Below, piece after piece: positions 22,927 through 42,614 of a stretch of 56,325 nt of DNA. Origin of the DNA: a virus (lineage: Duplodnaviria; Caudoviricetes); the IMG/VR virus record IMGVR_UViG_3300042868_007474, positions 1 through 56,325 of that record; one strand, 5' to 3'. Numbering within the stretch: position 1 is the first letter of the stretch; each line of letters opens with the position of its first letter. The translations under genes were made by a program, and so were the position numbers. A model generated the notes under the pieces. It made no database searches. It was not told where the DNA came from and saw only the letters and a list, made by a program, of their open reading frames with translations.

Positions 22927-22956
22927 ATTGTAGCATAAAAAACGGGTCTCCGTCAA
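22927..22956 (-). promoter_or_regulatory. Antisense sigma70-type promoter (one of eight)
   Basis: TTGACG-18-TACAAT with extended TG. Confidence 0.65.
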
Positions 22957-23061
22957 TACTTAATTTCATTTTTTATTTCAAAAATAAATCACAATTGTCT
23001 TGTGCTTCTCGGATAGTTCGCCATTGTAGTTCTTGTCACCCGACACCCAACACCAAAACAT

Positions 23062-23295
23062 ATGCACCCCGCCCCCCAGAACTGCACCGCCCCCGAACTG
23101 TTCCTCTACTCCGCCACTCGGACTTACCTCCGCTTGGAAGCCCGCACGGACGGGCGGATGTCGATGAGCAAGGCCGCTCGCCCCAACGCCCTCCTCCTCT
23201 TGGAGGTTCACGCAGGGGTCAAACTCCCCAAGCGTGTCAAGGCGACCGAACTGCTCGCCAAGTTTGAGGAAGCCTTCGGCAAGTATCTCCCGTAA
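23062..23295 (+). CDS. Array hypothetical protein
   Basis: 77 aa; own promoter and terminator. Confidence 0.7.
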   Translation: MHPAPQNCTAPELFLYSATRTYLRLEARTDGRMSMSKAARPNALLLLEVHAGVKLPKRVKATELLAKFEEAFGKYLP

Positions 23296-23392
23296 GGGAG
23301 GACGGCCAATGGTAACAGCCCCCTGTCGGGGGCTTTGTCATTTGTAAAAATCATTTTTACAATTTTTACAATTAGAGTGCCTACGAAACTAA

Positions 23393-23410
23393 ATGACGGG
23401 TATCGGTCAT
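23393..23410. promoter_or_regulatory. AYGAC-N8-GTCRT palindrome (type example)
   Basis: ATGAC-GGGTATCG-GTCAT; similar sites lie upstream of many array promoters. Confidence 0.7.
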
Positions 23411-23469
23411 AAACTTTTTTAAAAAAAGTGCTTGTGATTTTTCGAACCTTCGTCCATAGTGATGGAGTA

Positions 23470-23727
23470 ATGAATACCGAACCTTCTATGACCCCGAAAG
23501 AAATCATCACGGACTGCGAAAACAAGTGTCGCTTCCTCAACGGCCAGATTGCTGGCATCGACAAGGCTCTCCGCCTCTTGGCTAACGCTCTCTCGCCCGA
23601 AGGGCTGGCGATGGTCGCCTCTCTGGAAGCGACTCGCAAGACCCTTGACGACCAAGCGACCGCTCTCTCTGTCAAGCGACAGGACGCAGAAATCGCCCTT
23701 TACACGACCGATTTGAGCAAGGAGTAA
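23470..23727 (+). CDS. Array hypothetical protein
   Basis: MNTEPSMTPK, coiled coil. Confidence 0.65.
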   Translation: MNTEPSMTPKEIITDCENKCRFLNGQIAGIDKALRLLANALSPEGLAMVASLEATRKTLDDQATALSVKRQDAEIALYTTDLSKE

Positions 23728-23891
23728 GCAAGGTCGGGCGGGGCTAACGCCCTGCCCTTTTTTGCGACCCGTTTCCTAGGCGGAATTATTTCACTTTGAC
23801 GAAAGATTTTTCTTTCTTTTTTCCGACACCCGTGCTATTGTCCTCTTGTCGCCGTGAGCGACACAAAACCAAAACCAAACCAAACAAAACC

Positions 23892-24074
23892 ATGACCCCC
23901 GCCACCACCGCCATCGTCTCGCAGTTCAACGCCCTCGCCGAGAAGCACCCCAAGGAAGCGACCGCCATCCGCCTCCGCAACCACCTCCTCGCCCCCAAGG
24001 CGAACGCCGAGGAGGCCGTCCTCAAAGGCTTCTGGCTGATGATGGTCGCCGAACTCCGACAGGCGGTCAAGTAA
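23892..24074 (+). CDS. Array protein, paralog of 19142..19324
   Basis: See 19142. Confidence 0.75.
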   Translation: MTPATTAIVSQFNALAEKHPKEATAIRLRNHLLAPKANAEEAVLKGFWLMMVAELRQAVK

Positions 24075-24245
24075 GCCCCCACGGGTCAAGGCAAGGCTCG
24101 CCCCACGGGGCGGGCTTTTTTGTTGCCCGAGGTTCTCGACCTCGACCACCCCGTTTGCTAGGCCGCACGGGTAGCAAAAATAATTAAAATAGTTCTCGAC
24201 CTTTTTGGAAACATACCCCATAGTCATCTTATCGAAACAACCCTT

Positions 24246-24491
24246 ATGTCCTCCTCCTCCCTCTTCATCTCCCTCGGCGACCTGCTCGACCCCAACTGCC
24301 CCGTGGCAAAGGTCGCCCGAGAAAACGCCCGCCTCCACGCCGAGGAGGTCGCCCGAGTGACCGCCCTTGTCGCCGAGCGGGAAGCCTCCAAAGCCCGCTG
24401 GGCGGCGATGAGCAAGGAGGACAAGGAGGAAGCGATGCAGGATTGGGAATGGTCTATGATGCCCGAGGGCGAGGACTACCCCGAGGACTGA
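24246..24491 (+). CDS. Array hypothetical protein
   Basis: 81 aa with acidic C-terminus. Confidence 0.7.
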   Translation: MSSSSLFISLGDLLDPNCPVAKVARENARLHAEEVARVTALVAEREASKARWAAMSKEDKEEAMQDWEWSMMPEGEDYPED

Positions 24492-24632
24492 CCTCCTCGC
24501 CGAGCGGGAAGCCCGTAGTGAACGGGCGTTCACCGCCCTGCCGCCTACGAAACATAAAGACAGGTATCGCTCATAAAAAAAGTTAAAATAGTTCTCGCAA
24601 TTTTCTAAACGATGGTCATAGTCATAGATGTT

Positions 24633-24848
24633 ATGAACCTCATCCTCCTCACTACCTCCCTCCGCCACCCCGACCTGTCGTCTTACCGCCAGCCCGATGG
24701 CTCGACCCACTACCTCGCCGATGCTTACAGCACGGGCTGGTATCGAGCCCAAGGCGAGCAGTTGGAGGCGACTGTTAAGACCCTCCTCTCGGAGGTCGAA
24801 GCCAAGGACAAGGAAATCGAACGCCTCACCGCCCTCCTCGCCCGATAA
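24633..24848 (+). CDS. Array hypothetical protein
   Basis: MNLILLTTS; own promoter and terminator. Confidence 0.7.
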   Translation: MNLILLTTSLRHPDLSSYRQPDGSTHYLADAYSTGWYRAQGEQLEATVKTLLSEVEAKDKEIERLTALLAR

Positions 24849-25011
24849 GGGCGAAGGTCGGAACGCCCCCGAGGTCGGGGGCTTTTTGTTGCTCGGTTTG
24901 CTAGGTCTGCCTCCCGCAAAGATTTTAAAAATAGTTCTGGTATTTTCGGGCTGGGTGTGCTATTGTATCTTTGCAATCAGCAACCCAATCCAACCCAAAT
25001 CCAACGCCACT

Positions 25012-25287
25012 ATGTTCCCCCGCAATACCGACCCCACCCGTGAAGAAATGGTCGCCTTCCTTAAGGCAACCCCTCTGCATGACCATCGTGAGACCGCTGA
25101 CAGCATTGAGTTAGCCATCCACGCCTTCGCCACGGAAAACTACGATGGGCAGTTCTCCAACCTCTACATCGCCCTCTCCGCCTCGCCCGTCAGTTCTTAT
25201 GAGAACATTGACAGGGATTGGCTGGAAGCAAACGATGCGACCGCCTGTATGATGTTTGACGACCTTGAAACCGCCTTCGCTGGCTAA
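25012..25287 (+). CDS. Array hypothetical protein
   Basis: MFPRNTDPTREEM...YDGQFSNLYIALSASP. Confidence 0.7.
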   Translation: MFPRNTDPTREEMVAFLKATPLHDHRETADSIELAIHAFATENYDGQFSNLYIALSASPVSSYENIDRDWLEANDATACMMFDDLETAFAG

Positions 25288-25333
25288 CCCTCACGCCCCC
25301 CGCAAGGGGGGCAACCCCTCACCCTCCAAAAAA

Positions 25334-25447
25334 ATGTTCGACCCTCACCAAATGGATTACATAGTCGGGATGTTCTACCTCGGGCTTGCCGCCGCTGGCA
25401 TCTGCCTTGTTGGCTGGCTCTGCCTCCGCATCTTCGGCGACCTCTGA
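25334..25447 (+). CDS. Small membrane peptide
   Basis: 37 aa with one hydrophobic helix. Confidence 0.5.
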   Translation: MFDPHQMDYIVGMFYLGLAAAGICLVGWLCLRIFGDL

Positions 25448-25629
25448 CCGCCTCGGACGGGCTCGGGCTCGGGCGGTTGCTCGGGCTCGGGCTTTGCCTT
25501 GCGACCCAAAGCAACGGCGTTTCCCATACCTATGCTGTATGCTAGGTCTGGGTAGTGAACGGATGTTCAGTAGTAAGATTTTTAAAATAGTTCTTGTTTT
25601 TTTTCGTGGGTCGGGTATGGTGGTGGAGT

Positions 25630-26043
25630 ATGAAACACATCCCCGCCACCGACCTCGCCTCCGACACCTCCAACGCCCCCGCCCCCGCCCTCTGGGCTCT
25701 CGGGCGTGAGTTGTTCCCCCGCCCCGCCTCCGCCAAGTCCCACAAGGCCAAGGTCGAGGCCATCCTCGCCTCCCCCTCCGACCTCCGCCGTCTCGCCGCC
25801 GAGTCGGGCTGGAAGGTTCTCTCGGCTTTCGCCGATAAGGTCGCCAAGACCGCCAATTGGAACGACTATTGCGACCGCCACTCCACGCATTGGGGCTATA
25901 ACCGCAAGATGTTCTGGTCTGACAAGATGGTTTCCTGTGTCGAGCGGGCTCTCGCCTCGGTCAAGGGTTTCGAGCCCTCCGAGGTCGCCGAGTGGCAGTC
26001 CGAGTGCGACCATTGGGATGCCCTCCGCAAGGGCGAAATCTAA
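25630..26043 (+). CDS. Array hypothetical protein
   Basis: MKHIPATD, 137 aa. Confidence 0.7.
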   Translation: MKHIPATDLASDTSNAPAPALWALGRELFPRPASAKSHKAKVEAILASPSDLRRLAAESGWKVLSAFADKVAKTANWNDYCDRHSTHWGYNRKMFWSDKMVSCVERALASVKGFEPSEVAEWQSECDHWDALRKGEI

Positions 26044-26422
26044 TCCCCCCGCCACAAGGCAACCAGCCCCCGACAAGGGGGCTTTTTTGTGCCTCCGTTA
26101 TTTCAGCCCTCCGAGACGATGGCTATCGAGAAAGCCACGGGGGTCTGCTTGCCCTCTGGCTTGGCATCTGGCGGGCTTTGGCTACGGAGACGGGTCAATG
26201 GTCGGGCTTGGCTACGCAAGCCCTCTACGGGGCTTTAAATCGTGCGGAGATTGGACGGCCTTAACCTCCGCAAATCTGCGTAGATTGCACAGACCTAGCA
26301 AACGCACCGCCCGCTCCGCTCCGCTGGTTGCTAGGTGGCTGGTTCGCAAAAGATTTTAAAAATAGTTCTCGCAATTTTCGCAATCCCTGTCATAGTCTTT
26401 TTATTGTTCTTATAAAAACCAC

Positions 26423-26528
26423 GGAGACGGGACGGGTGTCCTGCTGGAAAGCCCGCAAGGGCGGGGGGCTTAACAGCCCTTCGGGTGAAATCCCAAGGTA
26501 GAGGGTTCGACTCCCTCCGTCTCCTCCA
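26423..26528 (+). ncRNA. Non-canonical tRNA-like RNA in its own promoter unit
   Basis: Acceptor GGAGACG/CGTCTCC + U + CCA; T-arm GAGGG-TTCGACT-CCCTC; aberrant multi-hairpin middle. Confidence 0.7.
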
Positions 26529-26590
26529 TTTTAAAATAATTAAAAATAGTTCTCGACTTTTTTCCGACCCGTGTCATAGTCATCTATGTT

Positions 26591-26725
26591 ATGAAAAACA
26601 AAGTTACCTTCGCTCAAGTCCTCCTCTCCGTCCGCAAGGTCGGGGGTCGCCCCTCGGTCGCCTTCCTCCCCAAGAAGGCCAAGGCCAAGGCCGACCGCCA
26701 CTCTTGGAAGAAGGAGCAGGAGTAA
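26591..26725 (+). CDS. Basic micro-protein (44 aa), paralog of 34590..34721
   Basis: MKNKVTFAQVLLSVRKVGGRPSVAFLPKKAKAKADRHSWKKEQE. Confidence 0.7.
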   Translation: MKNKVTFAQVLLSVRKVGGRPSVAFLPKKAKAKADRHSWKKEQE

Positions 26726-26867
26726 GGCACACGCCCCCGAGGTCGGGGGCTTCTTGCTACCCAAGACCTACGGAACTTAATGGCAGATGCCAATCATAAA
26801 ATAATTAAAATAGTTCTCGACTTATTCCTGCCCCGTGGCATAGTCATAGATGCACCAACCAAAACAT

Positions 26868-27071
26868 ATGAACCGCACCGAAAAAATCGAATCCATCCTC
26901 ACCCACATCTCTTACTCCGTCTCACAGGCGAAGGCATCGAAGAAGGAGGGTCTCCGCAACGCCGAGCGGTCTTACCTTCACGACATCTCCGACCTCGCCC
27001 TTGAACTGTCCCGCCTCACGGCAATCGAGTGGAGCAAGGCAAGCAACGCCGAGACTGTCACCAAGGAGTGA
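26868..27071 (+). CDS. Array hypothetical protein
   Basis: MNRTEKIES. Confidence 0.65.
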   Translation: MNRTEKIESILTHISYSVSQAKASKKEGLRNAERSYLHDISDLALELSRLTAIEWSKASNAETVTKE

Positions 27072-27220
27072 GGTCTCTCGGCAACACGCCCCCGAGAGGG
27101 GGCTTGTCCGTAGCACGGGCCTAGCAAACATAACGACAGATACCGCTCATAAAAAAGATAAAATAGTTATTGCATTTTCGGCGACCCGTGTCATTCTTCT
27201 CTATGCACCCAGCAACACCA

Positions 27221-27547
27221 ATGAAAACCAAAGCCAAAACCAAACTGTTCGAATTCCACCAAAACAACTCGGGAGGCCACTTCTGGCTGACGGAGGACAT
27301 CGGCCACAAGACCTTTATCGAGGCCAAGAGCCCCAAGGAGGCCGACAAGATTGCCGAGGGCAAGGGCATCTACTTCCACGGCATCGGCGACTGTGAGTGC
27401 TGTGGGGCTCGCTTCTCCTCCTCGACCAATTGGGGTGGCAAGCCCTTCGAAGGCGACCCCTTTGAGTTCGACAAGTGGGACAGGTCTGGCTCGGTTCACA
27501 TCGTCCACTACAAGGACGGCACTCGGAAGTCCCAGACCAAGGAGTGA
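27221..27547 (+). CDS. Phage protein with QNNSGG...GIYF.G..DCECCG motif (putative Zn-binding)
   Basis: Pattern recalled from phage early-region proteins, not searched. Confidence 0.7.
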   Translation: MKTKAKTKLFEFHQNNSGGHFWLTEDIGHKTFIEAKSPKEADKIAEGKGIYFHGIGDCECCGARFSSSTNWGGKPFEGDPFEFDKWDRSGSVHIVHYKDGTRKSQTKE

Positions 27548-27663
27548 ACAACAGCCCCCTCGGTGGGGGCTTTCTTGTGACCCGTTTGCTAGGTCGCATG
27601 GTCGCCGAAAATATTTAAAATAGTTGTTGCATTTTCCGACCCCTGTGCTATTGTGATGGAGTT

Positions 27664-27858
27664 ATGACCAACACCGACCCAGAAGAATACACCCAAGACG
27701 ACTACATCCAAGACTGCATTGACGAGTCCGAGCGGGCTTGGTCTCGCTGTGGGCGAGACGAGGACACCGAGGAGGACGAGGACTCTGGCGAGGAGTCCTG
27801 CGAGGACGAGGAGGAGGACGATGACGGCTCGTATTGTCGCACGACTCGGATGTGCTAA
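27664..27858 (+). CDS. Extremely acidic micro-protein
   Basis: 27 of 64 residues are D/E. Confidence 0.65.
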   Translation: MTNTDPEEYTQDDYIQDCIDESERAWSRCGRDEDTEEDEDSGEESCEDEEEDDDGSYCRTTRMC

Positions 27859-27986
27859 CGGACGGAACGCCCCGAAAGGGGCTTGTCCGCACATAGTGCC
27901 TACGGAACTTAATGGATGGTATCAGTCGTAAAATAGTTTAAAATAAACTTGCAATCGTCCGATGGATGACCATTCTAGTTTATGCA

Positions 27987-28262
27987 ATGAATAACTACTC
28001 CTCCCTCCGCAACCTGTCCGTAGTCGAACACAACCAGATGCTGGTGATGCGTTCCAACCCCAAGACGGAAACCGCTCGCATAAAGGCTCTCGACCTCCTG
28101 CTGGTTGAAATGGAAGCCCGCCGAAACTACCAGATGGCTCTCCCGTTGTCCTCCAAGGCTCTTCGCATCGCCTCTGGCAAGACCAACAAGGCTCTTCAAT
28201 CCTTCTTCAAGGCAAAGGACAAGGACAACGGTTTTGAGCCCACCTTTAAGGTGGTGGCATAA
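27987..28262 (+). CDS. Array hypothetical protein
   Basis: MNNYSSLRN. Confidence 0.7.
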   Translation: MNNYSSLRNLSVVEHNQMLVMRSNPKTETARIKALDLLLVEMEARRNYQMALPLSSKALRIASGKTNKALQSFFKAKDKDNGFEPTFKVVA

Positions 28263-28458
28263 AGATAGCCACAGGCAACCGAGCCCCCGAGAGGGGGTTT
28301 TCTTTTGGGTGCGTAGCATAGACCTAGCATACGGGGTGTGTGTCTATATGGTAGCATAAAAACTGCTTTGCGTCAATAACTATTTTCAAAATAAAAAAAC
28401 AAAAAAGATGAGAATGTGCTTGTGTCGGACGCAAGGAGTCTTATGTTCATAGTTGCTT

Positions 28459-28641
28459 ATGACGCTCCACTACATCATCACCAACCCGAACGAAACTGAC
28501 GAACAGGGGAACACCCTCTGCTGGTCGAACAAGGACGGATGGGTGTCCAAGGACACCGCCGACCGCTTCAACAAGGAGGACACCAACACCCTCACCCTGC
28601 CCGCTGGTGGCATCTGGGACTACACTATGACCTTGGACTAA
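28459..28641 (+). CDS. Array hypothetical protein
   Basis: LCWSNKDGWV...F...LP.GG.W motif. Confidence 0.7.
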   Translation: MTLHYIITNPNETDEQGNTLCWSNKDGWVSKDTADRFNKEDTNTLTLPAGGIWDYTMTLD

Positions 28642-28836
28642 CCCCCAACGCATAAGGCGAGAGGGGCAGGGAAACCTGCCCTTTTTCGTGACCCGATTGC
28701 TAGGTCGCTAATTGTAAAAAGATTGTAAAAATAAATCGTTCGAAAAATGAAAAATGTTCTTGTGCCAGAAAGATAAACCTGTATTGTCATCTATGTCACC
28801 AAGACACAACCCAACACAACCCAACACCCCCCGCAT

Positions 28837-29049
28837 ATGAACCACATCCCCGACTACGGCAAATACAGCATCGGCAAGACCGCCGACCTCCCCGCCAACG
28901 ACCCCATCCACGCCAACCCGAACGCCCTGCCGTTCTACATCTACGACACGATTGATGGCTATCTGGTCGATACTGTGGCGACCGAGAAGAAGGCAGTCGC
29001 CAAGGTTCTGGAATGGTGCGAGGATGACGAACTGATGGGCGACTTCTAA
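28837..29049 (+). CDS. Array hypothetical protein
   Basis: 70 aa. Confidence 0.7.
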   Translation: MNHIPDYGKYSIGKTADLPANDPIHANPNALPFYIYDTIDGYLVDTVATEKKAVAKVLEWCEDDELMGDF

Positions 29050-29226
29050 ACCGCCCAGCCCGACAGTCGCCCCCGCAAGGGGGCTTTGTCGTTTGTAAAA
29101 AAGTCTTTTACAATTTTTACAATTCAGTAGCCTAGCATCGTGGTCATAAAAATCTTTGCCAAAGTGAAAAATAAACTTGTGTTAGCCACGGGTCTCGTCT
29201 AGTGTATCCTCCTTCCCGCAATACAT

Positions 29227-29469
29227 ATGAACAACATCACCACCGCCAAGTTCAACTACCTGCCCGAGGCCATCAAGGCCGAATACATCAAGGCATCCAA
29301 AGCCCTGCTGTTCGCCGAGGCCGACCTCGCCCGCATCAAGGACGACCTCACCTCCTCGGACGGCGACATCTACACCGCCGAGGTCGCCCGAGGTATCGCC
29401 CTCACCGCCTTCCTTACCGCCAACAAGGCGAGGAATGAGGCGGCACAAGCGAACAACAAGGGAGTCTAA
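29227..29469 (+). CDS. Array hypothetical protein
   Basis: 80 aa. Confidence 0.7.
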   Translation: MNNITTAKFNYLPEAIKAEYIKASKALLFAEADLARIKDDLTSSDGDIYTAEVARGIALTAFLTANKARNEAAQANNKGV

Positions 29470-29705
29470 TCCCTTATGTCGCCCCCTTGCGGGGGCTTCC
29501 GACTGACCACCGATAAGGTGGCTTTCGTTATGCCTTTTGCTAGGTCTCTATATATAGATTATACACCCCCTTGCGTATGATGTAAAGAACAATATGCAAA
29601 AATTGGTTCATTTATTTTTGAATGTTCATTTTAGAATGAACTAACTATTTTAAAATAATTTCACTTTGGGCTTGTGCTTCTCCGTGCATCTGTCATCTTA
29701 CTTCT

Positions 29706-29999
29706 ATGGCAACCACCACCACCACTCCCATCTGGGACAAACTCATCTCCACCGCCGACTATACCCGAGTCCGTGAAAAGACCTGTGGCCTTGTCCACGA
29801 GGTCTTCTCCACCGCCGATGGTTGGTCTGAAGCCCGTGGGGCGACCCATACCCTCTACTGTGGCGAAGGCCACGGCAAGGGTATCCGCCCCGCCCGCCTC
29901 CTCCAGACTGTCCTCTGGGTTGGCACGGACGAGACCCCGACCGCCGATGGCACGGACACCCGCATCGTCTGGGAGAAGTGGGAGGTCAAACGCCTCTGA
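29706..29999 (+). CDS. Array hypothetical protein
   Basis: 97 aa. Confidence 0.7.
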   Translation: MATTTTTPIWDKLISTADYTRVREKTCGLVHEVFSTADGWSEARGATHTLYCGEGHGKGIRPARLLQTVLWVGTDETPTADGTDTRIVWEKWEVKRL

Positions 30000-30152
30000 C
30001 CACGGAGGGGGCAAGGGGCGAAAGCCCCGACCTCCCGTTTGCTAGGCGGAGCATACGACCGACTCCACTCATAAAAATAGTTAAAAAAGTTGTTGCTTTA
30101 AAAATTAAAATCTCCATGTTCATAGATGCACCAACGCACTCCCAACAACATT

Positions 30153-30362
30153 ATGAACCCGCTCCTCATCATCGAACTGTCCAACAGCCACACCGCCTCT
30201 GGACTCCCCATCCGCAAGTGGTCTGCTTACACCAAGCAAAAACTGCTCCTTGCTTACATCAACGGCAAGGTCTCTGAAAAGTCCTTCCAGACCGCAGTCT
30301 CGGCGGTCGAACAATTCCGCATCATGGTCGAAGCCAAGGAAGCCCAAGTGGTCGAGGCGTAA
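30153..30362 (+). CDS. Array hypothetical protein
   Basis: MNPLLIIEL. Confidence 0.7.
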   Translation: MNPLLIIELSNSHTASGLPIRKWSAYTKQKLLLAYINGKVSEKSFQTAVSAVEQFRIMVEAKEAQVVEA

Positions 30363-30501
30363 GCCTCGGCGGGACAGCCCCCGATGGGGGCTTTCTCAGC
30401 CCGTAGACCTACGGAACTAAACGACAGGTATCGCTCATAAAAAGTTTTAAATAATTTAAAAAAATGCTTGTGCTTCCCGTGGCATCTGTCAGTCTATCGG
30501 T

Positions 30502-30750
30502 ATGGAAATTACTTCCAACGGGGCTAACTCCTCGGGCAACTCCCCTGCCCGACTCACCCTCGCCGAGGCCAACCTCGCCGTCCGTGCGGCTTACGGCAAG
30601 GTCTCTGCGACCAGCCGAGCCCTCAACGAGGCTGTCGAGGGTAGCGAAGGCTACCACCTCGCCCGAGCCCATTGGCTCATCGCCTTGGACAACCGAGACC
30701 ACGCCGAGGCCGTGGTGTTCGCCCTTGAGGACGAAGCCCGAGGGGGCTAA
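30502..30750 (+). CDS. Array hypothetical protein
   Basis: 82 aa. Confidence 0.7.
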   Translation: MEITSNGANSSGNSPARLTLAEANLAVRAAYGKVSATSRALNEAVEGSEGYHLARAHWLIALDNRDHAEAVVFALEDEARGG

Positions 30751-30885
30751 CGCCCTTGATGGGTCGCCCCCTCACGGGGGCTTTTTACACGCCGTGCCTA
30801 CGGAACTTAATGACAGGTGTTGAGCATAAAATAGTTTGAGATTTTTCTTGAAAAAGTTTCCGAGGTTCACAGTATGGTAGATGTT

Positions 30886-32740: not shown

Positions 32741-32809
32741 GCCACCCCTCGCAAATACTTTAAAATAAAACTTGCAAACCCCAGACCCTTGGCTATCTTA
32801 ATGACTGAT

Positions 32810-34187: not shown

Positions 34188-34232
34188 AATAAACTTGCAA
34201 TCCACCCAGCACCCGCCATACTTATCCCTGTT

Positions 34233-34469: not shown

Positions 34470-34589
34470 TCGGGAGTCAGCCCCTTGCGGGGCTTTACCC
34501 GTTGATAGGTTATTACAATGAAACAATCCAAAAAGAAAGTTAAAAATAAACTTGCAAAGCGTAAACGGATACGCAAGATAGTCCGTGTT

Positions 34590-34721
34590 ATGAAAAACAA
34601 GACTATTACCCAGATGGAAGTTCTCAAAGCCGTCCGCAAGACGCTCCCGCCCGCCTCCCGTGCCTTCACGGATAAGCGTGGCAAGGACAAGCGTAAGGAG
34701 TGGAAGCGGGAGGAGTGGTGA
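34590..34721 (+). CDS. Basic micro-protein, paralog of 26591..26725
   Basis: MKNKTITQMEVLKAVRKTLPPASRAFTDKRGKDKRKEWKREEW. Confidence 0.7.
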   Translation: MKNKTITQMEVLKAVRKTLPPASRAFTDKRGKDKRKEWKREEW

Positions 34722-34879
34722 GCGACCTCTACCAAGTGTGCGAGTGGACGCTTGAGCGTCCCAACGCCGCAAGATGCAATCGCCTCCGCAATCTGCTTGT
34801 TAGGATGGGTTATCCCATCGAGACCCAATGGTGGACTGACGAGCAGGTTGTAACCTTTGCGAAACGCACCACCCACTAA
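34718..34879 (+). CDS. Micro-protein (53 aa, GTG start, not in ORF track) with GYP.E...W.D motif
   Basis: RNLLVRMGYPIETQWWTDEQVVTFA resembles the 36797 and 39720 proteins. Confidence 0.6.
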   Translation: MSDLYQVCEWTLERPNAARCNRLRNLLVRMGYPIETQWWTDEQVVTFAKRTTH

Positions 34880-34967
34880 CCTACGAAACTAAACGACAGG
34901 TCTCGGTCGTAAAATAATTTAAAATAGTTTTGACAACACCCCTTGGTTGTGCATAATGTATCTCGTT

Positions 34968-35177
34968 ATGAAAACCAAAAAAGAAAAACAAACGCACTTC
35001 GTCACCGCCAACATCACCATCGTCTATGAGGTCTTTACGGACTCCAAGGGCAAGGCGGAAATCAAGTTTATGGAGGCGTTCGAGAACCTTGACGAGCGAG
35101 CCGAGATGGTTCGTGATTGCATCCTTGAAATCGAAAAGGTTGAGAACGCTCACGAACATCTCGGAGATGCAGAATAA
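34968..35177 (+). CDS. Array hypothetical protein
   Basis: MKTKKEKQ. Confidence 0.65.
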   Translation: MKTKKEKQTHFVTANITIVYEVFTDSKGKAEIKFMEAFENLDERAEMVRDCILEIEKVENAHEHLGDAE

Positions 35178-35220
35178 TTAATTTGACAAACCACAACGCA
35201 ACGCCATACTGTATCTTGTT

Positions 35221-35484
35221 ATGACCAACCTCCGACCATCATCCAAACTCACCAAGGAAGAACTCGCCAAGGCTACGCCAGAGACCCGCAGGGTCTTGGC
35301 TATGAAGCCCGTCATCTATCCCAAGACCGACAAGGGCTTTGGAAAGGCCGAGGATGACTTTGCCTTCCTTATGGACTATGCCCTTGGAACTGACGAGGGT
35401 GAAGTTATCAACAACGCCTTGAATTGGAAGCGTTGGGAACTCTCGGAATACTACGAAAAGAAATACGGCTGGGATATCTGTTAA
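35221..35484 (+). CDS. Array hypothetical protein
   Basis: 87 aa; promoter TTGACA...CATACT directly upstream. Confidence 0.7.
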   Translation: MTNLRPSSKLTKEELAKATPETRRVLAMKPVIYPKTDKGFGKAEDDFAFLMDYALGTDEGEVINNALNWKRWELSEYYEKKYGWDIC

Positions 35485-35611
35485 TAGTTTGCCCCGTCAA
35501 GGGGGCAACACATACATAGGTTTGTATATGCAGGTATTCAGTCGTGAAATAGTTTAAAATAAACTTGTAAAGCATCCCGACTTGTGCATTATAGTAAGTC
35601 TATCACCCGCT

Positions 35612-35830
35612 ATGAACACCACACCCAGCACCCACGCCATCGTCACCGACCTCGGAACTCAATGGTTCGACCTCCTCGGCCTCCGCAATGAAGCCCCTTA
35701 CGGGAGTGCCAAGTATAACCGAGCCGAGGCCAAGATGACCATCCTTGAGGACAAGGCATCTATGCTAATCTTTAATGACACCGACCACACTATGTGTGAG
35801 TGCCTCAACGGCAGGGAGGAGGAGCGTTAA
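35612..35830 (+). CDS. Array hypothetical protein
   Basis: MNTTPSTH. Confidence 0.65.
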   Translation: MNTTPSTHAIVTDLGTQWFDLLGLRNEAPYGSAKYNRAEAKMTILEDKASMLIFNDTDHTMCECLNGREEER

Positions 35831-35970
35831 GAGGCAGGGCGAGACGCACCAAATGCGTCATCGCTCCGCTTGCTAGGTATGTTATATGATTGGTTTCGGT
35901 CGTATCTTTTTATTCTATTTTATCTTTTGGTGCTGGACTTTCTCCCCTCGGTGTGCATACTTGTTCTTCT

Positions 35971-36267
35971 ATGACCCCCCACAGCATCATTGACACCACC
36001 CAGCGGGCTTGCCTCCGACTCCTCCCGCACAAGCCCACGGAGGACGGCGTTGTTTACCTCCGAGAGGTCATCACCACGACTCTCGACTCTATCGGCATTG
36101 ACGAGAAAATGCCCGTGGTGGTCAAGCACATGGCAGTCCTTGCCGAGTGGGATGTTGAACACCTCCACCAATTCGAAAGCCACCAGCGACCTCACATCAT
36201 CGAGTGCCTTGGCATCTGTGCGTATCTCTCCGACAAGATGAACGAAGGTTATTTTCAAAATAACTGA
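35971..36267 (+). CDS. Array hypothetical protein
   Basis: MTPHSIID. Confidence 0.65.
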   Translation: MTPHSIIDTTQRACLRLLPHKPTEDGVVYLREVITTTLDSIGIDEKMPVVVKHMAVLAEWDVEHLHQFESHQRPHIIECLGICAYLSDKMNEGYFQNN

Positions 36268-36334
36268 AAATAAACTTGCATTAAAAAATGATTTGTGCAT
36301 ACTGTATCTTCTCACCCAATACCAACAAAAACAA

Positions 36335-36655
36335 ATGAAGCCCAACACCGACACCCTCAACGCCTTCCTTGACGAACACACCACGCACTTGTCTGCGGAG
36401 GTCGTGTCCCTCTGGATGGAGAACCTCCACGAAACCGAGCCGACTCGGGATATCCTCGACCAAGCCGAAGAGGCTTATATCGGTGAGTTCCGAGACCTTA
36501 CCCGCCTTGCCGAGTATCTGATTGATGAGTCGGGTATGCTCTCAAACATCCCCTCCGAGGTCGCCAATTATTTCGACTACGAGAAGTATGGCAATGACCT
36601 CCGAATGGGTGGAGATGTTTGGGAGTCGGAAGGACACTTCTTCCGCAACATCTAA
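36335..36655 (+). CDS. ardA: ArdA-like antirestriction (DNA mimic) protein, short form
   Basis: EEAYIGEF....LAEYLIDESGML..IP..VANYFDYEKYGNDL..GGD....GHFF is the ArdA C-terminal signature. Confidence 0.8.
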   Translation: MKPNTDTLNAFLDEHTTHLSAEVVSLWMENLHETEPTRDILDQAEEAYIGEFRDLTRLAEYLIDESGMLSNIPSEVANYFDYEKYGNDLRMGGDVWESEGHFFRNI

Positions 36656-36796
36656 CCAGCGGGAGACCGCCCCGAGAGGGGGCTTCTCCTTTGGTCGGAT
36701 ACATAGGCAATGCTATGGTTGAAAATAATTAAAAATTATCTTGTAAGTTTTAGATTTTATGTCATACTGTATCTCTATCACCCACCACACACAACA

Positions 36797-37030
36797 ATGA
36801 GCCGCACCCCTCCCGAAACCGACACCGAAATCCGTAACGAGTTCTCCGACCGCTACAACTACTTCTCGTTTATGACGATGGTAGCCCAATGCAAGAACCG
36901 TGCCTCCCAGAAGGCCGTCTGTGCTTACGCCCGCCGCATGATGGTCGTCCTTGGCTATCCCGCCGAGACCGCCACTTGGGACGATGCCCAGACCATCAAC
37001 TACGCACAAAATATTGTGATGATGGGCTAA
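36797..37030 (+). CDS. Array protein with GYP.E...W.D motif
   Basis: RRMMVVLGYPAETATWDDAQTINYA. Confidence 0.7.
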   Translation: MSRTPPETDTEIRNEFSDRYNYFSFMTMVAQCKNRASQKAVCAYARRMMVVLGYPAETATWDDAQTINYAQNIVMMG

Positions 37031-37075
37031 AAATAATCTTGTATTCAAACCCAATCCGTGCATACTGTATCTACT

Positions 37076-37336
37076 ATGACCACCAACTATTCCCCCCAGC
37101 AGGTTTCTCACATCGCCCTCCAGCACCTTGACTGCCCCGAGCATCTTCCTCGGGCGTGGTCTGACATGACCCCCAGCGAACAGGCTATGGCCGTCTGGTT
37201 TATGAGACGCAGGGACTACCACACCCGCTCGGGAGTGGCTTACCACATCCTCGGCTGTGCCACCAAGGCCAAGGGCGACCATCTCACCGAGGCCGAGGCC
37301 GACACCCTCTGGGAACTCATCTTCCCCAAGGAGTGA
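37076..37336 (+). CDS. Array hypothetical protein
   Basis: MTTNYSPQ. Confidence 0.7.
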   Translation: MTTNYSPQQVSHIALQHLDCPEHLPRAWSDMTPSEQAMAVWFMRRRDYHTRSGVAYHILGCATKAKGDHLTEAEADTLWELIFPKE

Positions 37337-37458
37337 GGCACGGGGGGCTTTGCCCCTCGGCTTCGCCGTTGCTAGGTATCTATACGCACGAATGCCGTCA
37401 TAAAATAAATGCATTTGGTGCTTGAAAAAACCTCCGACCCGTGTATCCTGTATCTCGT

Positions 37459-37683
37459 ATGAATGAGAACTCAATTGCCCGCCTCGGCTTTGACGCTTGG
37501 GCTGATAACATCATCGTCAATGTCATCGAGAACGCCCCTCCCTTGCCCTTCAAGTGGGAGGACGACCACGGGACGACTGTGGCTATCACCCGCCAAGGAG
37601 ACGACCTCCACGGGGTCGTAAGGGCATACTATCACGGCTGGCAGACTCACGAAGTCTCCGTGAAAAATAAGTTTAAAAAGTGA
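37459..37683 (+). CDS. Array hypothetical protein
   Basis: MNENSIAR. Confidence 0.65.
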   Translation: MNENSIARLGFDAWADNIIVNVIENAPPLPFKWEDDHGTTVAITRQGDDLHGVVRAYYHGWQTHEVSVKNKFKK

Positions 37684-37735
37684 TTGCACAAACCTCTAAA
37701 CTGTGCATACTGTAATTCTCTCCCCCACCAAAACA

Positions 37736-37915
37736 ATGAAAACCCCACAAAACCAAAAAGCAGAAATCGCCCGCCTCATTAAGTATATCACCAAGCAAGC
37801 GGTGATTTGCGATGACGGACGCTCCATCGGCTCGGAAGAGGAACAGCAGGAGCAGTCCTGCCGACTGATGGAAGCACTTCTCCGCCTCAACATCCTCATT
37901 GACGAGCAGGAGTAA
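37736..37915 (+). CDS. Array hypothetical protein
   Basis: MKTPQNQK. Confidence 0.65.
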   Translation: MKTPQNQKAEIARLIKYITKQAVICDDGRSIGSEEEQQEQSCRLMEALLRLNILIDEQE

Positions 37916-38158
37916 GGGGTAAGGCAGGACAAACAAACCGAGGGGGCTCACGCCCCCTCTTTTGTTTTGTGTTAGTCGGCTTCGCCTCCTATGCACCAGA
38001 TGCGTCAGCCCATTTGGTATAGTCTAACAGAAAAACAAAACAAAGTAAAGCACTAAACCAAAAATAAAAGTTTAGTTATTTTCTCAAATCGCTTTACTTC
38101 CGTCTCAAAGTGTGCATAGTAGTCTATGTCACCAACGACACCAACCACCCAAAAACAT

Positions 38159-38674
38159 ATGAGCCACAACATCACCAACACGAAAGCCCTCGCCTTCGTC
38201 CACGCCTGCAACGACAAGAAGGGTCAGTTCATCGAACTGTCCTTCAAGTCCGAACCGACCCCCGCTTCCGCCTTCAAGGGCGTGAAGTTGGAAAAGTTCA
38301 CCAAGGGCGTGTATCGCACGGGTATCAACTTCGCCAACCTCGCCCCCGTCAAGGAAGCGATTGAAAACAAGGAGCGGGGTGAAGTCCAGCCCCTCGCTTG
38401 GGGTTCGTGGGCGGTTTTCCCCCTCGTCATCGCCCATACCAACAAGGCGGGCGAATACAAGGAATACCTCCGTATCACCTTCTCCCCCTCCCACAAGCCC
38501 GTTGTGGCTTACAAGGTGGACGGCGTGGAAGTGTCGAAGGAACACTTCGAAAGCCACCTGCGTCCGTCCGACCGCCTCCCGAAGCCCCCGACCTTGGTGT
38601 TCAACATCGAAGCGGACAACCTTCTGGAAGTCCACGGGCTCGACCTCACGGAAGCCGAAGTGTCGGGGGTCTAA
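38159..38674 (+). CDS. Array protein, paralog of 31807..32334
   Basis: See 31807. Confidence 0.85.
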   Translation: MSHNITNTKALAFVHACNDKKGQFIELSFKSEPTPASAFKGVKLEKFTKGVYRTGINFANLAPVKEAIENKERGEVQPLAWGSWAVFPLVIAHTNKAGEYKEYLRITFSPSHKPVVAYKVDGVEVSKEHFESHLRPSDRLPKPPTLVFNIEADNLLEVHGLDLTEAEVSGV

Positions 38675-38729
38675 CCCCCAGCCCTCTGGGGCTCGCCTCC
38701 ACCTCGCAAGGGGTGGGGGCTTCTCCGTT

Positions 38730-38761
38730 TGAACAGGCGTTCAGTAGTGAACATCTGTTCA
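38730..38761. promoter_or_regulatory. Tandem TGAAC-N4-GTTCA palindromes
   Basis: TGAACAGGCGTTCA-GTAG-TGAACATCTGTTCA; five more copies elsewhere in the array. Confidence 0.7.
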
Positions 38762-38872
38762 CCAATCATAGACCTATGCATTAGACATAGGTATGGTTAT
38801 GGCGGAAGGCGGTCAAATAAAGTTGTCGATTGTAGTTGTAATTTTTCCCGACCCGTGCATACTGACTCTCGT

Positions 38873-39196
38873 ATGAATAACACTACCAAGTTCCCCAAGT
38901 TCAGAACCTTCCTCAACGACCACAACAAATCGCCGAGGGCTATTGCCCTCGCCGTGTGCAACAAGGCATCCAAGAACGCCTGTTCCTGTTCGCTGGACGA
39001 CCTGCCCGAGACCTTCTCCTTCGTCCGTGAGGTCGATACGATGGAGAACACTATTGCCAATTGGGGCATCCCTCGCAACCCCTCTGACGGGCAGATTGAA
39101 GCCCTTTACAAGCACGCCTTGGAAGCCGTCCAAGACCTCTCCGTGTCGGCGGGCTTCTATCGCCTCCACAGCATTAAGCACCCGATTAAAATCTAA
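38873..39196 (+). CDS. Array hypothetical protein
   Basis: MNNTTKFP. Confidence 0.65.
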   Translation: MNNTTKFPKFRTFLNDHNKSPRAIALAVCNKASKNACSCSLDDLPETFSFVREVDTMENTIANWGIPRNPSDGQIEALYKHALEAVQDLSVSAGFYRLHSIKHPIKI

Positions 39197-39238
39197 AAAT
39201 CTTCTTGCAAAAAACCAAAACCCATACATACTACTTAA

Positions 39239-39526
39239 ATGCACATCACCCATCATCACAACTGCCACATCCATTCGGCTGTCCAGAACCTTACCCACGC
39301 AATCAAGCACCTCGAAAATGCTGACAAGGAGTTTCTTGTCGCCGAGGTGGTAGCATCCATTGGCGAGACGGGGGCGGTAGTCCCCGAGGATTATGTTCGC
39401 TTTATCGCAAATCCGTCCCGTAAGGAAGGTCGCTATCGCCTCCTCCGTGCCATCTCCGAAATGGAAAACGCTATTAAGGATGTCAGAAAGTCCCTTGAAA
39501 CCGACCCCAATAATGTCGAAAGTTGA
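39239..39526 (+). CDS. Array hypothetical protein
   Basis: 95 aa. Confidence 0.65.
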   Translation: MHITHHHNCHIHSAVQNLTHAIKHLENADKEFLVAEVVASIGETGAVVPEDYVRFIANPSRKEGRYRLLRAISEMENAIKDVRKSLETDPNNVES

Positions 39527-39695
39527 GGATGCGGATAGCCACCGAATGGCCGAGGTCAGAGACCTTGTGCTATTCGTTATCCGAGCCAAAGATAAATTGG
39601 CTGGGCAACCCGAGCCAGCCCGCTCGGAGAACCTTGCCCGTATCAAGGAAGCACAGATGAGGCTTGAAATTATAAAGTCCCATATGGGGCTGTAA
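39513..39695 (+). CDS. Array hypothetical protein
   Basis: MSKVEDAD, overlaps the previous stop. Confidence 0.55.
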   Translation: MSKVEDADSHRMAEVRDLVLFVIRAKDKLAGQPEPARSENLARIKEAQMRLEIIKSHMGL

Positions 39696-39719
39696 GCCCC
39701 ATTGACATAAGACAATTAT

Positions 39720-39923
39720 ATGGATAAGTATATTAAAACGGCTTACGATGCGGCACTCTCGGCGGGGACTCCACTTCAAAAAGAAGCGTGTGCAAAGTTT
39801 AAGGAAGTTATGCTTGAGGCAGGTGGCCCAAAAGAGTTCCAAGAATGGTCTGACGAAAAGGTTATGGACTTCGCAATAGACCTTATACTAAAAACCAAGA
39901 TTAGACAGCACATAATTGATTGA
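39720..39923 (+). CDS. Array protein, variant of the GYP.E...W.D motif
   Basis: KEVMLEAGGPKEFQEWSDEKVMDFA. Confidence 0.65.
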   Translation: MDKYIKTAYDAALSAGTPLQKEACAKFKEVMLEAGGPKEFQEWSDEKVMDFAIDLILKTKIRQHIID

Positions 39924-40009
39924 TAGGTATTTATATGACGGCATTCGGTCATTAAAATAGTTTAAGATAAACTTGCATTTGGTTGCAGGGTGTGCATACT
40001 GTATCTCGT

Positions 40010-40375
40010 ATGAAACACACCACCAAGAAAGCCATCCTCATTAACGCCAAGACCAACACCGTCAGTTTCGTGGAGGTCGGTGAATACACCGACATTTACA
40101 AGCACTGCGGTTATCAGACCTTTACCTGCGTGGGTCTCCCGCAGGAGAAGGAAACCCTCTATGTCGATGACGAGGGTCTTATCAATGGCACGGACTACGG
40201 CTTTACCATCGAGGGCTACGCCGACCCCCTTATGGGCAACGGACTCATTCTCGGGACTCGTTCCAACGGGGACAGCCGAGACACCGACCTTACGGTTGAG
40301 GAAGTTTGTAAAATGGTTCGCATTCTTCGCCCAACGGCTTTCGGCTTCATTTCGATGAAGCCCACGGCTGGATAA
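40010..40375 (+). CDS. DUF3846-like protein
   Basis: KAILI...LYVDDEGL...PLMGNGLILG...GDSRD pattern. Confidence 0.65.
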   Translation: MKHTTKKAILINAKTNTVSFVEVGEYTDIYKHCGYQTFTCVGLPQEKETLYVDDEGLINGTDYGFTIEGYADPLMGNGLILGTRSNGDSRDTDLTVEEVCKMVRILRPTAFGFISMKPTAG

Positions 40376-40428
40376 TTGGTTAAAATCTTCTTGACATTAC
40401 TCACACTATTCGCATACTTATTAACACT

Positions 40429-40761
40429 ATGGACTACCAGATTTACGAAGTTGTAATTCGCTACCTTGACACCCCAGACGAAGAACCCCACGCCGTCCTT
40501 GTGTCGGTCGGGGAAGACCAGCCCGAGGAGGGTGGCGAGGATGACGAGGCTTGTTTTTTCCATTTCTACCCGTTTGAGTGGGAAGACCTTTGCAAGACCA
40601 TTAAGGAGGGTTTCCGCTATGATGTAGACGGCGAGTTCCGAGTTGAGAACCACGGGGACGAGTATGTTGAAGACCTTGCCAATGAGCCAGACGAAGACCC
40701 AGAGCCAATGGGCGATGAGGTCGAAGGCGAGACCGAGCAAGAACCAGAACAGGGTGCTTGA
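40429..40761 (+). CDS. Acidic protein
   Basis: 110 aa, roughly one third D/E. Confidence 0.7.
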   Translation: MDYQIYEVVIRYLDTPDEEPHAVLVSVGEDQPEEGGEDDEACFFHFYPFEWEDLCKTIKEGFRYDVDGEFRVENHGDEYVEDLANEPDEDPEPMGDEVEGETEQEPEQGA

Positions 40762-40799
40762 CGGCTCTGCCGCTTGTTAGGTATCTTGCAGTAACTTAA

Positions 40800-41135
40800 A
40801 CAACTGAAAGACCCCCCACACGAAACACCGTGTGGAGGGTCAGTTGTTATGTATGAACCAACGCTAAATGAAGGCTAACAGGGATAGTTCCAGCGACAAC
40901 AATAACATTCCGTGCCTTGCAACCAACAACAACAACGCTTGGGGCTCTTACGATGCTCCCCACTTCCCTGTTAGCACAAATTAATCGGAGATTTTTCGAT
41001 AGTCCTTTTCACCCTGCTCTGGTTAGACCAATCGAGGGTGTCGGCTCACCGCTGGTAGTCGGTGGCAGTCCTTACGGATACTGCAAGGGGGCGGGCCTCA
41101 CGGCTTGTCGCATCTCCAAAGTGTTTCAATCAACG
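40800..41135 (-). ncRNA. Candidate multi-domain structured ncRNA
   Basis: Promoter TTGCAT-16-CATACT (41171-41144); stems GGAGAT/ATCTCC, GCTAACAGGGA/TCCCTGTTAGC and a long terminal hairpin; no credible ORF. Confidence 0.55.
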
Positions 41136-41177
41136 ATACATACAGTATGCATAACCTTTCGGATAATGCAAGAAGAA

Positions 41178-41372
41178 AGTTGAATGTCTTGTGCCTTTGC
41201 AGATGGGGGAAGTTCTCCGTATTCCCACCCGCTTTGTCCGCACAAGCATCTTGGGTTTGTAGTCGGAGCGTTCCGCTCCCGCTGTCTCTTCCCCCGCTTT
41301 GGACACGGGGTGATAGCCATTGGCAACCAGCGAGGTTTCTACAAACTTGCACAAAGTGATTTCAATTAACAA
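41178..41372 (-). ncRNA. Candidate ~190-nt structured ncRNA
   Basis: Promoter TTGCAT-16-CATACT (41407-41380); closing stem TTGAA..TTGTGC/GCACAA..TTCAA; inner GTTTGTAG/CTACAAAC multibranch. Confidence 0.55.
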
Positions 41373-41504
41373 TAAATACAGTATGCATACCTCCGAAAGA
41401 AATGCAAGCACCATTTTAACATTCATTTGCTAGGTCGCTATATGATTGAAAATAGTTGAATAAACATCTTGAAAAAAATCTAAAACCTGTAATACTGTAT
41501 CTCT

Positions 41505-41693
41505 ATGACACTCGCTCAATACCAGCAAGGAATGAAACGACTCGCCGAAATCCGCAACAGCCTTACCACGGCTCGGCAGGAACTCGCCTCCGAGAAGAAC
41601 TACGACCTGCGTGAAATGCATCAAGCGGTTATCAATGCCCTTATGGCAGAAATGCAGGAAACCGAAACCTTAATGAACGGACTTCAAAAATAA
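41505..41693 (+). CDS. Array hypothetical protein
   Basis: 62 aa. Confidence 0.7.
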   Translation: MTLAQYQQGMKRLAEIRNSLTTARQELASEKNYDLREMHQAVINALMAEMQETETLMNGLQK

Positions 41694-41757
41694 TTCATTT
41701 TCATCTTTACATTAAATCAGATTTGTGCATACTGTATCTTCTAACCCAAACAACCAA

Positions 41758-42045
41758 ATGACCACACTCAAAACCGTCTCCATCTACAACACCATCGACA
41801 CGATGACCGCCCGCAAGCCCTCTTGTTGGGGGGATATCCCCGCCGTGGCTGTCGCTCACGAACTGAAATCCATTCTGTTCGGTCGCCTCCCCGTGCTGGA
41901 AATCGAGTCCGCAGAATACCATCCCCTCGATGACATTGAAGGTGGTGTGCCGAACCAGCGTTTTATGCTGAACTACGGCGAGAAGACTTACTATGTGAAC
42001 TCCGAGGGCTATAACTATTGCCGATACATTTGCGAAATTGTTTGA
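41758..42045 (+). CDS. Array hypothetical protein
   Basis: MTTLKTVS...YYVNSEGYNYCRY. Confidence 0.7.
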   Translation: MTTLKTVSIYNTIDTMTARKPSCWGDIPAVAVAHELKSILFGRLPVLEIESAEYHPLDDIEGGVPNQRFMLNYGEKTYYVNSEGYNYCRYICEIV

Positions 42046-42092
42046 CTTTCCAACCCAAATAACCATACTAACTAAATCCAACCAACACTACT

Positions 42093-42359
42093 ATGAGCAA
42101 TATGTCTTACTGCCGTTTCGAAAATACCGTCTCCGACTTGGAGGACTGCGTTGAGTCGTGGAGCGATGGTGTTTCGTCCAAGGACGAAGCCCGAGCCCGC
42201 CAGCGACTTGTCGAGGTCGCCGAGGAAGTCCTCTCCCTCTACCGCTCTGACAGGGAGATGGTGGACAGCCTTGAACTCAATGAGGAGGGCAAGTCTTACG
42301 AGGCTGACGATGACGACACGGAGGACGAGGATAACGAGTCCTCCTCGGACTCCGAGTAA
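42093..42359 (+). CDS. Phage protein with MSNMSYCRFENT N-terminus and acidic tail
   Basis: N-terminal motif recalled from many phage early proteins, not searched. Confidence 0.75.
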   Translation: MSNMSYCRFENTVSDLEDCVESWSDGVSSKDEARARQRLVEVAEEVLSLYRSDREMVDSLELNEEGKSYEADDDDTEDEDNESSSDSE

Positions 42360-42614
42360 GGTTTAGCCCCTCACGGGGCTTTTCCTTTGGTTTGGTTGTT
42401 AGGTATCTAACAGACCCCAAAGTTGCCCCCACGGCGACCCATTTGGAATATTGTAGCACATTCGCAAGCCGTTGTAAAGCAAAAAGATAAGAGTTTATTC
42501 TTTGATTGTTTTACGAAAAGATAACTTTGTGCTTGCGGAAACTTAAATCGTATGCATACTTGTAAGAGTCCAATCAAGGACAACCAACCAAAACTAAACC
42601 AAACCAAAATACAT

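Follow-up and report, generated by a model that had tools for sequence, protein, structure and literature searches.

Early region of the phage and its backward-facing promoter-like sites

The stretch of DNA analysed here, called the window, is the whole of IMG/VR record IMGVR_UViG_3300042868_007474, a 56,325 bp piece of an uncultured freshwater phage genome (class Caudoviricetes) with a completeness rated at about 70%, and lake-water metagenomes match it at full identity. Minus-strand genes at 1-18 kb include those for a GpA-type large terminase, a lambda-family portal, an S49 protease and an AAA_25 helicase-like protein, and ten tRNA genes lie on the same strand at 48968-50699. Small genes are densely packed on the plus strand from about 21 to 46.5 kb, where they form about 40 units, each equipped with a promoter and a GC-rich terminator hairpin of its own. 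Plus was taken as the coding strand of this early region because its plus frames are coding by GC periodicity at the third codon position (GC3), and because the terminator-like hairpins, 48 against 25.1 ± 5.1 in shuffled sequences, are in their majority on the plus strand. A loose scan gave about 40 plus-strand promoter matches of one type between 20.9 and 46.5 kb, with an AT-rich tract (often AAAATAGTT), a -35 of CTTGTA, CTTGTG or CTTGCA, and a -10 of (TG)CATAGT or CATACT. The elements studied here are promoter-like sites on the opposite, minus strand at the junctions of these units, seven of which belong to a repeated two-way cassette.

Eight antisense promoters between 22927 and 42478 had been proposed in an earlier note on this DNA. 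All eight minus-strand hexamer pairs were present at the positions given there, each with a sigma70-type (TTGACA-like) -35 located 16-18 bp before a TAnnnT -10, with 8-11 of 12 matches, and each was back to back with a sense promoter as described. The extended TG ascribed to most of them was found one base upstream of the -10 in seven, the site at 29586 being the one without it. A promoter scan of the region on both strands returned 28 promoter-like sites, compared to 12.6 ± 3.4 in shuffled sequences, and listed six of the eight (29586, 42478, 31177, 22956, 33431 and 28376), with 31728 and 38049 under its threshold. A composite scan of 22600-42600, requiring a TT.... -35 with at least 3/6 matches, a spacer of 16-18 nt and TGnTAnnnT, gave 10 sites on the minus strand and 3 on the plus strand. 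In 500 dinucleotide shuffles the minus strand gave 1.01 ± 1.00 sites, and none of the shuffles reached 10. Seven of these 10 matches were sites of the earlier note, and the extra ones (27924, 40907 and 41921) were weak. The minus strand contains four exact copies of the 9-mer TGCTACAAT and the plus strand none, with 0.038 expected.

The simplest alternative is that the sites arose by chance or mirror the AT-rich UP elements of the sense promoters. Promoter-like hexamers are common in AT-rich phage intergenic DNA, as the three weak extra matches illustrate, yet neither the count of sites nor that of the 9-mer (4 against 0.04) was approached by chance, and seven copies align over more than 100 nt. 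The mirror of UP elements, raised in the earlier note as a way in which its proposal could fail, is ruled out because both hexamers lie outside the AT-rich block. We therefore regard this alternative as refuted for the seven and possible for 29586 alone, and give it next to no probability overall. The sequence data support a real, non-random family of seven minus-strand promoter-like elements.

Anatomy of the two-way cassette

Three members of the family have TTGACG as their -35, namely those at 22927-22956 (18 nt spacer, TG-c-TACAAT), 28348-28376 (17 nt, TG-c-TACCAT) and 31148-31177 (18 nt, TG-c-TACAAT), all on the minus strand like the following four. TTTACA is found at 33403-33431 (17 nt, TG-c-TACACT) and at 42450-42478 (17 nt, TG-c-TACAAT), TTTACT at 38021-38049 (17 nt, TG-t-TAGACT), and the weak -35 TTGTGT at 31700-31728 (17 nt, TG-c-TACAAT). 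Thus TACAAT is the -10 in four members, and TACCAT, TACACT and TAGACT are found once each. The member at 28376 is preceded by AAAATAGTTA, and it shares with the sense promoters their upstream motif AAAATAGTT. The sense promoter of the first cassette lies at 23000-23027 on the plus strand (TTGTGC, 16 nt, CATTGT), and those of the other six start at 28420, 31221, 31772, 33475, 38093 and 42533.

Each cassette is about 110-130 bp long and, read on the minus strand, runs from the complement of the sense -35 through an AT-rich tract to the backward -35, its spacer and the TG-n-extended -10. The two -35 hexamers are separated by a gap of exactly 43 bp in six of the seven (22957-22999, 28377-28419, 31178-31220, 31729-31771, 33432-33474 and 38050-38092). 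In the remaining one (42479-42532) it is 54 bp if TTGCGG is taken as the sense -35, which is 11 bp, or about one helical turn, longer. Although this spacing is constant, the AT-rich sequence that fills it differs considerably among copies. A gap of 43 bp leaves about 21 bp of AT-rich upstream DNA for each arm, and the first 30 nt past the antisense -35 have 7-10 A or T per 10 nt, the sole exception being one window with 5 of 10 in the copy at 38049. The two-way tract is about twice as long as that of one-way junctions, and since these have only about 20-25 nt of AT-rich DNA, the spacer looks like two UP-like tracts placed back to back.

Within the backward promoter, the TG and -10 positions 1, 2 and 6 (T1, A2 and T6) are invariant in all seven copies, and variation is confined to positions 3-5. 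The distal half of the 17 or 18 nt spacer is variable and its proximal half reads GTTTTT in 5/7; ATA/ATT-CCAAA follows the -10 in 4/7. An invariant -10 and TG next to an unconserved distal spacer is the pattern expected under selected promoter function, and we consider it likely that selection has maintained the seven sites as promoters. With a weight matrix of the seven, no further copy was found on either strand of the whole window.

At 22920-22934, a perfect 15-bp palindrome surrounds the -10 of the member at 22956. The plus strand therefore also reads TG-c-TACATT there, which makes a symmetric two-way -10 nested in the backward promoter, the only one in the family.

This palindrome is one of the features that would suit a different reading, in which the block is not a promoter at all and serves the sense promoter as a binding site for a phage or host protein, or as a bending or structural element, any likeness to promoter hexamers being a coincidence. 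Conservation of the 9-mer and of the T-tract is indeed tighter than a -10 strictly requires, and the fixed phasing with the sense promoter would suit an activator site too. However, the palindrome is present in one copy of seven, the positions that vary are precisely the ones at which a -10 hexamer tolerates change, the TG comes together with a -35 at 17-18 nt and with 21 bp of extra AT-rich DNA, and about 35 other sense promoters do without the block. We find a protein site improbable. Two further readings of the plus strand were tried and rejected. A sigma54 reading (GG ... GC), judged by eye, had a spacing of 9 instead of 10 nt and 3 copies only, and a -10 reading (TATAGT, in the cassettes at 33431 and 38049) had no -35 partner and was not family-wide.

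The eighth site (29558-29586, minus strand) has TTTACA, a 17 nt spacer and TATAAT, with 11/12 matches. It could not be aligned to the cassette, has different AT-rich surroundings and lies 84 nt from the -35 of its sense promoter, which starts at 29672. It is an independent promoter-like site outside the cassette family. In the 84-nt AT-rich tract at 29587-29671, GTTCATTT is repeated directly and is also present as an inverted copy (AATGAAC), and these repeats could be an operator.

A further part of the proposal was that each backward promoter points at a TAGG motif and at the hairpin of the upstream unit. This was only partly borne out, as a plus-oriented TAGG lies between hairpin and antisense -10 at five of the eight sites (22956, 29586, 31177, 33431 and 42478), the motif is inverted at 28376, and 31728 and 38049 have merely TAGT-like variants. 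More generally, a junction motif of the TTGCTAGGT type follows nearly every plus-strand terminator, at most junctions between 20 and 46 kb. As its distance from the following promoter is variable, it seems tied to the end of the unit. Both orientations are found, the motif being inverted at about 28326 and 27120, and junctions of the CCTACGGAAC type resemble the reverse form; in some junctions it lies within the loop of a small hairpin, the stem of which differs from case to case.

The same promoter form ahead of genes

The pattern TTGAC-N9/10-TTTTT-n-TGCTACMAT was searched in viral contigs, where it matched at least 118 stretches. Among the 80 loci listed, most were copies of a single conserved promoter that belongs to an unrelated group of phages with about 43% GC, and the rest came from diverse phages. 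In the former group, a GGAG-type ribosome site and then a conserved ATG start come after many of the listed copies. The promoter of this group, about 30 nt long, is conserved to the letter across dozens of contigs. Similar promoters stand before genes in the present lineage as well. In the nearest relative found (record G001, described below), CTTGACT, 16 nt and TGCTATGAT precede a gene with a CA-rich leader, and the helicase operon of the window has CTTGACA, 17 nt and TGCATAGT. Because the same type of motif serves genes elsewhere, in G001 and in the window, the element is best read from its sequence as a generic strong housekeeping-sigma promoter form, with similar ones apparently used by the lineage for real genes.

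Predicted transcripts of the backward promoters

The statement that there is no gene to transcribe held for these sites. No credible open reading frame (ORF) on the minus strand starts within 150 nt of the predicted starts, and the frames present are short or mirrors of plus-strand genes. In the cassettes at 42478 and 38049 an ATG lies exactly 7 nt past the antisense -10, opening frames of 11 and 2 codons, respectively; the same position is ATT at 33431 and ACG at 31177. This layout, of the leaderless type, is a hint that a leaderless gene was once expressed from the backward arm.

Four predicted transcripts had been reported to start alike, and their starts (CCAAACGG, CCAAATTGG and, twice, CCAAATGGG) were found as given. 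Similarity among the cassette copies stops about 12 nt past the predicted start. The predicted 100-nt transcripts have no common fold beyond the complement of the upstream terminator, with fold z-scores of -0.23, -0.01, -4.37, -1.29, +0.34, -0.91, -3.16 and -3.42. In an Rfam search of the whole window, the gathering threshold was reached only by the 10 tRNAs (48968-50699). A hairpin with a T-rich tail follows the start on the minus strand at one of the eight sites, 38049, where the hairpin of the upstream unit (37940-37959) is terminator-like on both strands. Other upstream terminators lie on the plus strand at 28281-28300, 31586-31609, 33309-33332 and 42365-42380, and two further minus-strand terminator-like matches near the sites fall within promoter spacers.

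These results do not favour the proposed family of defined 50-120 nt junction RNAs, which would act in trans as guides, primers or diffusible antisense regulators. The four alike starts speak for it, the complement of the junction motif would be contained in all transcripts, and the promoter at 38049 could yield an RNA of about 85 nt that ends at the two-way terminator and has a fold z-score of -3.16. Against this, discrete RNAs of that size are not predicted, because the transcripts share no fold or sequence past about +12, have no Rfam match and lack a minus-strand terminator at 7/8 sites; the junction motif, moreover, occurs in both orientations. We consider trans-acting RNAs very improbable.

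At all eight sites, the geometry resembles that of lambda oop, in that a promoter on the opposite strand lies just downstream of a gene and its predicted transcript runs over the 3′ end of that gene.

A proposed role in cis

The backward promoters probably fire, as their motif is complete, their variable positions fit a promoter and their spacing has been kept. If so, host RNA polymerase would start at the backward arm and produce untranslated transcripts without a defined 3′ end. These leftward transcripts would cross the complements of the TAGG motif and of the upstream terminator, run into the 3′ end of the upstream gene, and end through collision or through a termination factor. Leftward polymerases would meet polymerases that have read through the terminator head-on, and the 3′ end of the upstream mRNA would be base-paired by the leftward RNA, as in lambda pO/oop. 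Firing backward might also relieve positive supercoils ahead of the sense promoter.

We infer that any effect would come from transcription itself or from antisense overlap in cis, rather than from a diffusible RNA. As the best explanation overall, held tentatively, we propose that the backward promoters are real and lineage-specific, lie in cassettes like the PeSL elements of T4-type phages, and make cis-acting non-coding antisense transcripts. That their main role is interference or insulation in cis is somewhat more doubtful still. We think it decidedly unlikely that the backward arm is a selected portable insulator, in which collision would stop read-through, the 3′ end of the upstream mRNA would be destabilised and the sense promoter would be kept negatively supercoiled.

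Relatives and spread of the cassette

No nucleotide match to the window was found among deposited phages, and no prophage relative among genome contigs. Protein matches to the terminase were below 60% identity in all 228 records, and at 22-25% in the best 15 of the 228. A DUF932 query found one viral and one metagenome locus. The 175-aa gene found nothing when used alone and, used as an alignment, only G001 and a distant contig of 35% GC. G001 (80.5 kb) is the nearest record found and the one close record that covers the region, with structural genes collinear to those of the window and matching stretches of about 65-93% nucleotide identity. In its early region, homologous pieces begin at the sense -10 or the leader and stop before the terminator, and their order is scrambled, so the early-region units appear to behave as shuffled modules. 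This fits recombination of PeSL-type cassettes (PMC2839356).

The genes downstream of the cassettes are mutually unrelated save one pair, 31807-32334 and 38126-38674 (57% identity over 159 aa). As the cassette is also missing in relatives, it appears from these sequences to be specific to this lineage and to have spread among unrelated units, probably by recombination. Directly upstream of each member of the paralogous ORFan pair is a two-way cassette; both match one locus in G001, where the cassette is not upstream.

Several results weigh against the cis-acting explanation, and most of them come from these comparisons. Conservation in relatives, a check named in the earlier note, was not found: G001 has the cassette at 0/6 junctions that precede homologues of cassette-flanked genes, so that it is missing from the closest relative at every homologous junction (6/6). 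Those six junctions run from a terminator through GGGGTAGG(T/C) to a promoter, with neither a long AT tract nor a backward promoter. A second relative, a metagenome contig in which one junction is visible, has a layout like that of G001 and no cassette. A motif search of five other related contigs (42-79 kb) gave no family-type match, the five matches returned having 2 mismatches each and being unrelated, and 19 helicase-gene loci gave no family-type match on their early-region side, where the window has 1-2 sites in the comparable range. Since the cassette is absent from relatives, there is no cross-species conservation to argue for function, and recent copying or gene conversion, instead of selection, could account for the conserved pattern. 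In addition, the strength of the upstream terminators is uncorrelated with the cassette, their T-runs being good in some and lacking in others. The sigma specificity of the host was deduced solely from the phage's own promoters. The RNA data over 22700-42600 (Logan contigs of a metatranscriptome and of a probable DNA run filed as RNA) are unstranded, carry no starts or ends, and are uninformative on minus-strand initiation.

The junction motif of G001, as an observation apart, is GGGGTAGG followed by T or C.

The main rival to the cis-acting explanation is that the backward arm is an orphan relic. The cassette would have been copied from a true divergent control region, whose leftward promoter served a leaderless gene, and junction recombination would have spread it; the leftward arm may still bind polymerase, with no functional product and no selected role now. 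This would account for the ATG 7 nt past the -10 at 42478 and 38049, for the dissimilarity of copies beyond about 12 nt past the start, for the absence of the cassette from relatives, and for its presence beside unrelated genes with a single paralogous pair. However, the key positions of the -10 and -35, the TG and the 43-bp spacing have been kept while their neighbours diverged, and neutral decay should have hit them as well. No full-length source locus was found in the window or in viral contigs, where a cassette-specific pattern matched 12 stretches, none of them cassette-like. We judge the relic rather unlikely, and the protein-site, trans-acting small-RNA and chance readings rank below it.

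Other features of the early region

When 16 proteins (the products of the 15 site-neighbouring genes and the 392-aa ORF at 18870) were searched against PHROG, 14 had no family, and the other two, both from site-neighbouring genes, belonged to families of unknown function. Early genes on the plus strand at 21000-46500 have their start codon about 9-10 nt past the -10, which makes them nearly leaderless, or follow a CA-rich leader of 25-35 nt, and no Shine-Dalgarno sequence was noticed upstream of their start codons. Such starts may be a clue to an unusual style of translation in the host.

A divergent control region lies at 47600-48400. Its promoters of the sense type point left, for minus-strand genes at about 47.3-48.3 kb, and it has a rightward near-consensus promoter (TTGACA, 16 nt, CACAAT).

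The promoter-driven unit at 26427-26529 (plus strand) has no credible ORF and holds a tRNA-like RNA. The acceptor-type stem of this RNA is 8 bp long and leads into T and CCA, its T arm looks canonical, its anticodon-like loop measures 7 nt, and its extra arm is long. The RNA scored 25.2 bits with the Rfam tRNA-Sec model (threshold 47, E 0.004), was not called by ARAGORN, and had a fold z-score of -2.26.

In the DUF932 ORF, the first ATG (42552) falls within the -10 region of its own promoter (TGCATACT), the next ATG is at 42615, and the match of one relative starts at query residue 19. Its true start is probably a later ATG.

Comparison with known systems and implications

The design of the units is closest to that of the PeSL (promoter-early stem-loop) cassettes of T4-type phages (PMC2839356). 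These recur between genes as blocks that combine a strong sigma70-like promoter, an AT-rich tract before the -35 and a GC-rich terminator stem-loop, and they stand before small ORFans in a plastic region whose units are shuffled as modules between relatives. The composite motif of that type (promoter, AT-rich tract and GC-rich stem-loop) is present here in tens of repeats ahead of ORFans. The differences are that this phage, with its lambda-family portal, GpA-type terminase and S49 protease, is not T4-type, and that seven junctions here have a second, backward promoter at fixed spacing; in that paper no backward promoter is described and the word antisense does not occur. As the phage is not a T4-type myovirus and has no nucleotide match to deposited phages, we take PeSL as an analogy and not as membership.

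Lambda oop is a single defined 77-nt RNA with its own terminator. Our elements resemble pO/oop in having a promoter that opposes the main early transcription, just downstream of a gene, with a predicted transcript antisense to its 3′ end. They differ in having 7-8 copies, of which 7 lack a terminator on that strand, and in sharing no RNA sequence with one another and no sequence homology with oop. For lambda, PMC3985674 reports that firing of the convergent pO lowers pR transcription by polymerase interference and that oop RNA is antisense to the end of cII.

Opposite-strand promoters or antisense RNAs have also been mapped in Pseudomonas phages such as LUZ19 (P001) and PAK_P3, whose genes are nearly all on one strand, and the authors suggest that antisense transcription of the LUZ19 type blocks unwanted elongation (PMC10914365). 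P001 is described there as a single promoter of a phage RNA polymerase, conserved across its genus, whereas the backward promoter here is of host type, repeated within a cassette and not conserved in relatives. The symmetric bidirectional promoters of bacteria are a third comparison. They likewise give divergent transcription, one product often being non-coding and antisense, but they share one pseudo-symmetric -10, with starts usually 18 bp apart (PMC10268837, citing Warman et al. 2021). The cassette has two complete promoters back to back, with 43 bp between the -35 hexamers in most copies and a distance of about 115 bp from one predicted start to the other.

Regulatory cassettes of promoter and terminator, like antisense promoters in phages, are known kinds, of which the two-way block is a variant. 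Lambda pO and the LUZ19 antisense promoter are the best analogues of the backward promoter, and PeSL cassettes those of the unit design.

In each unit of this region, an ORFan with its promoter and its leaderless or Shine-Dalgarno-free leader is followed by a terminator and a junction motif. If the insulator reading were true, every new ORFan module would bring its promoter, terminator and insulator along, which would give PeSL-type cassettes a third working part and constitute a natural design for isolating densely packed transcription units. More broadly, if the backward promoters fire and matter, phages would insulate packed ORFan units with a reusable two-way cassette, and divergent promoters at fixed spacing would offer a compact part, of natural origin, with which transcription units can be isolated. 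If the backward promoters have no role, this would be a case of promoter cassettes, one promoter of which is without a target, multiplying in one lineage amid gene shuffling. Either way, we believe that the region is a clear non-T4 example of regulatory cassettes that frame ORFans.

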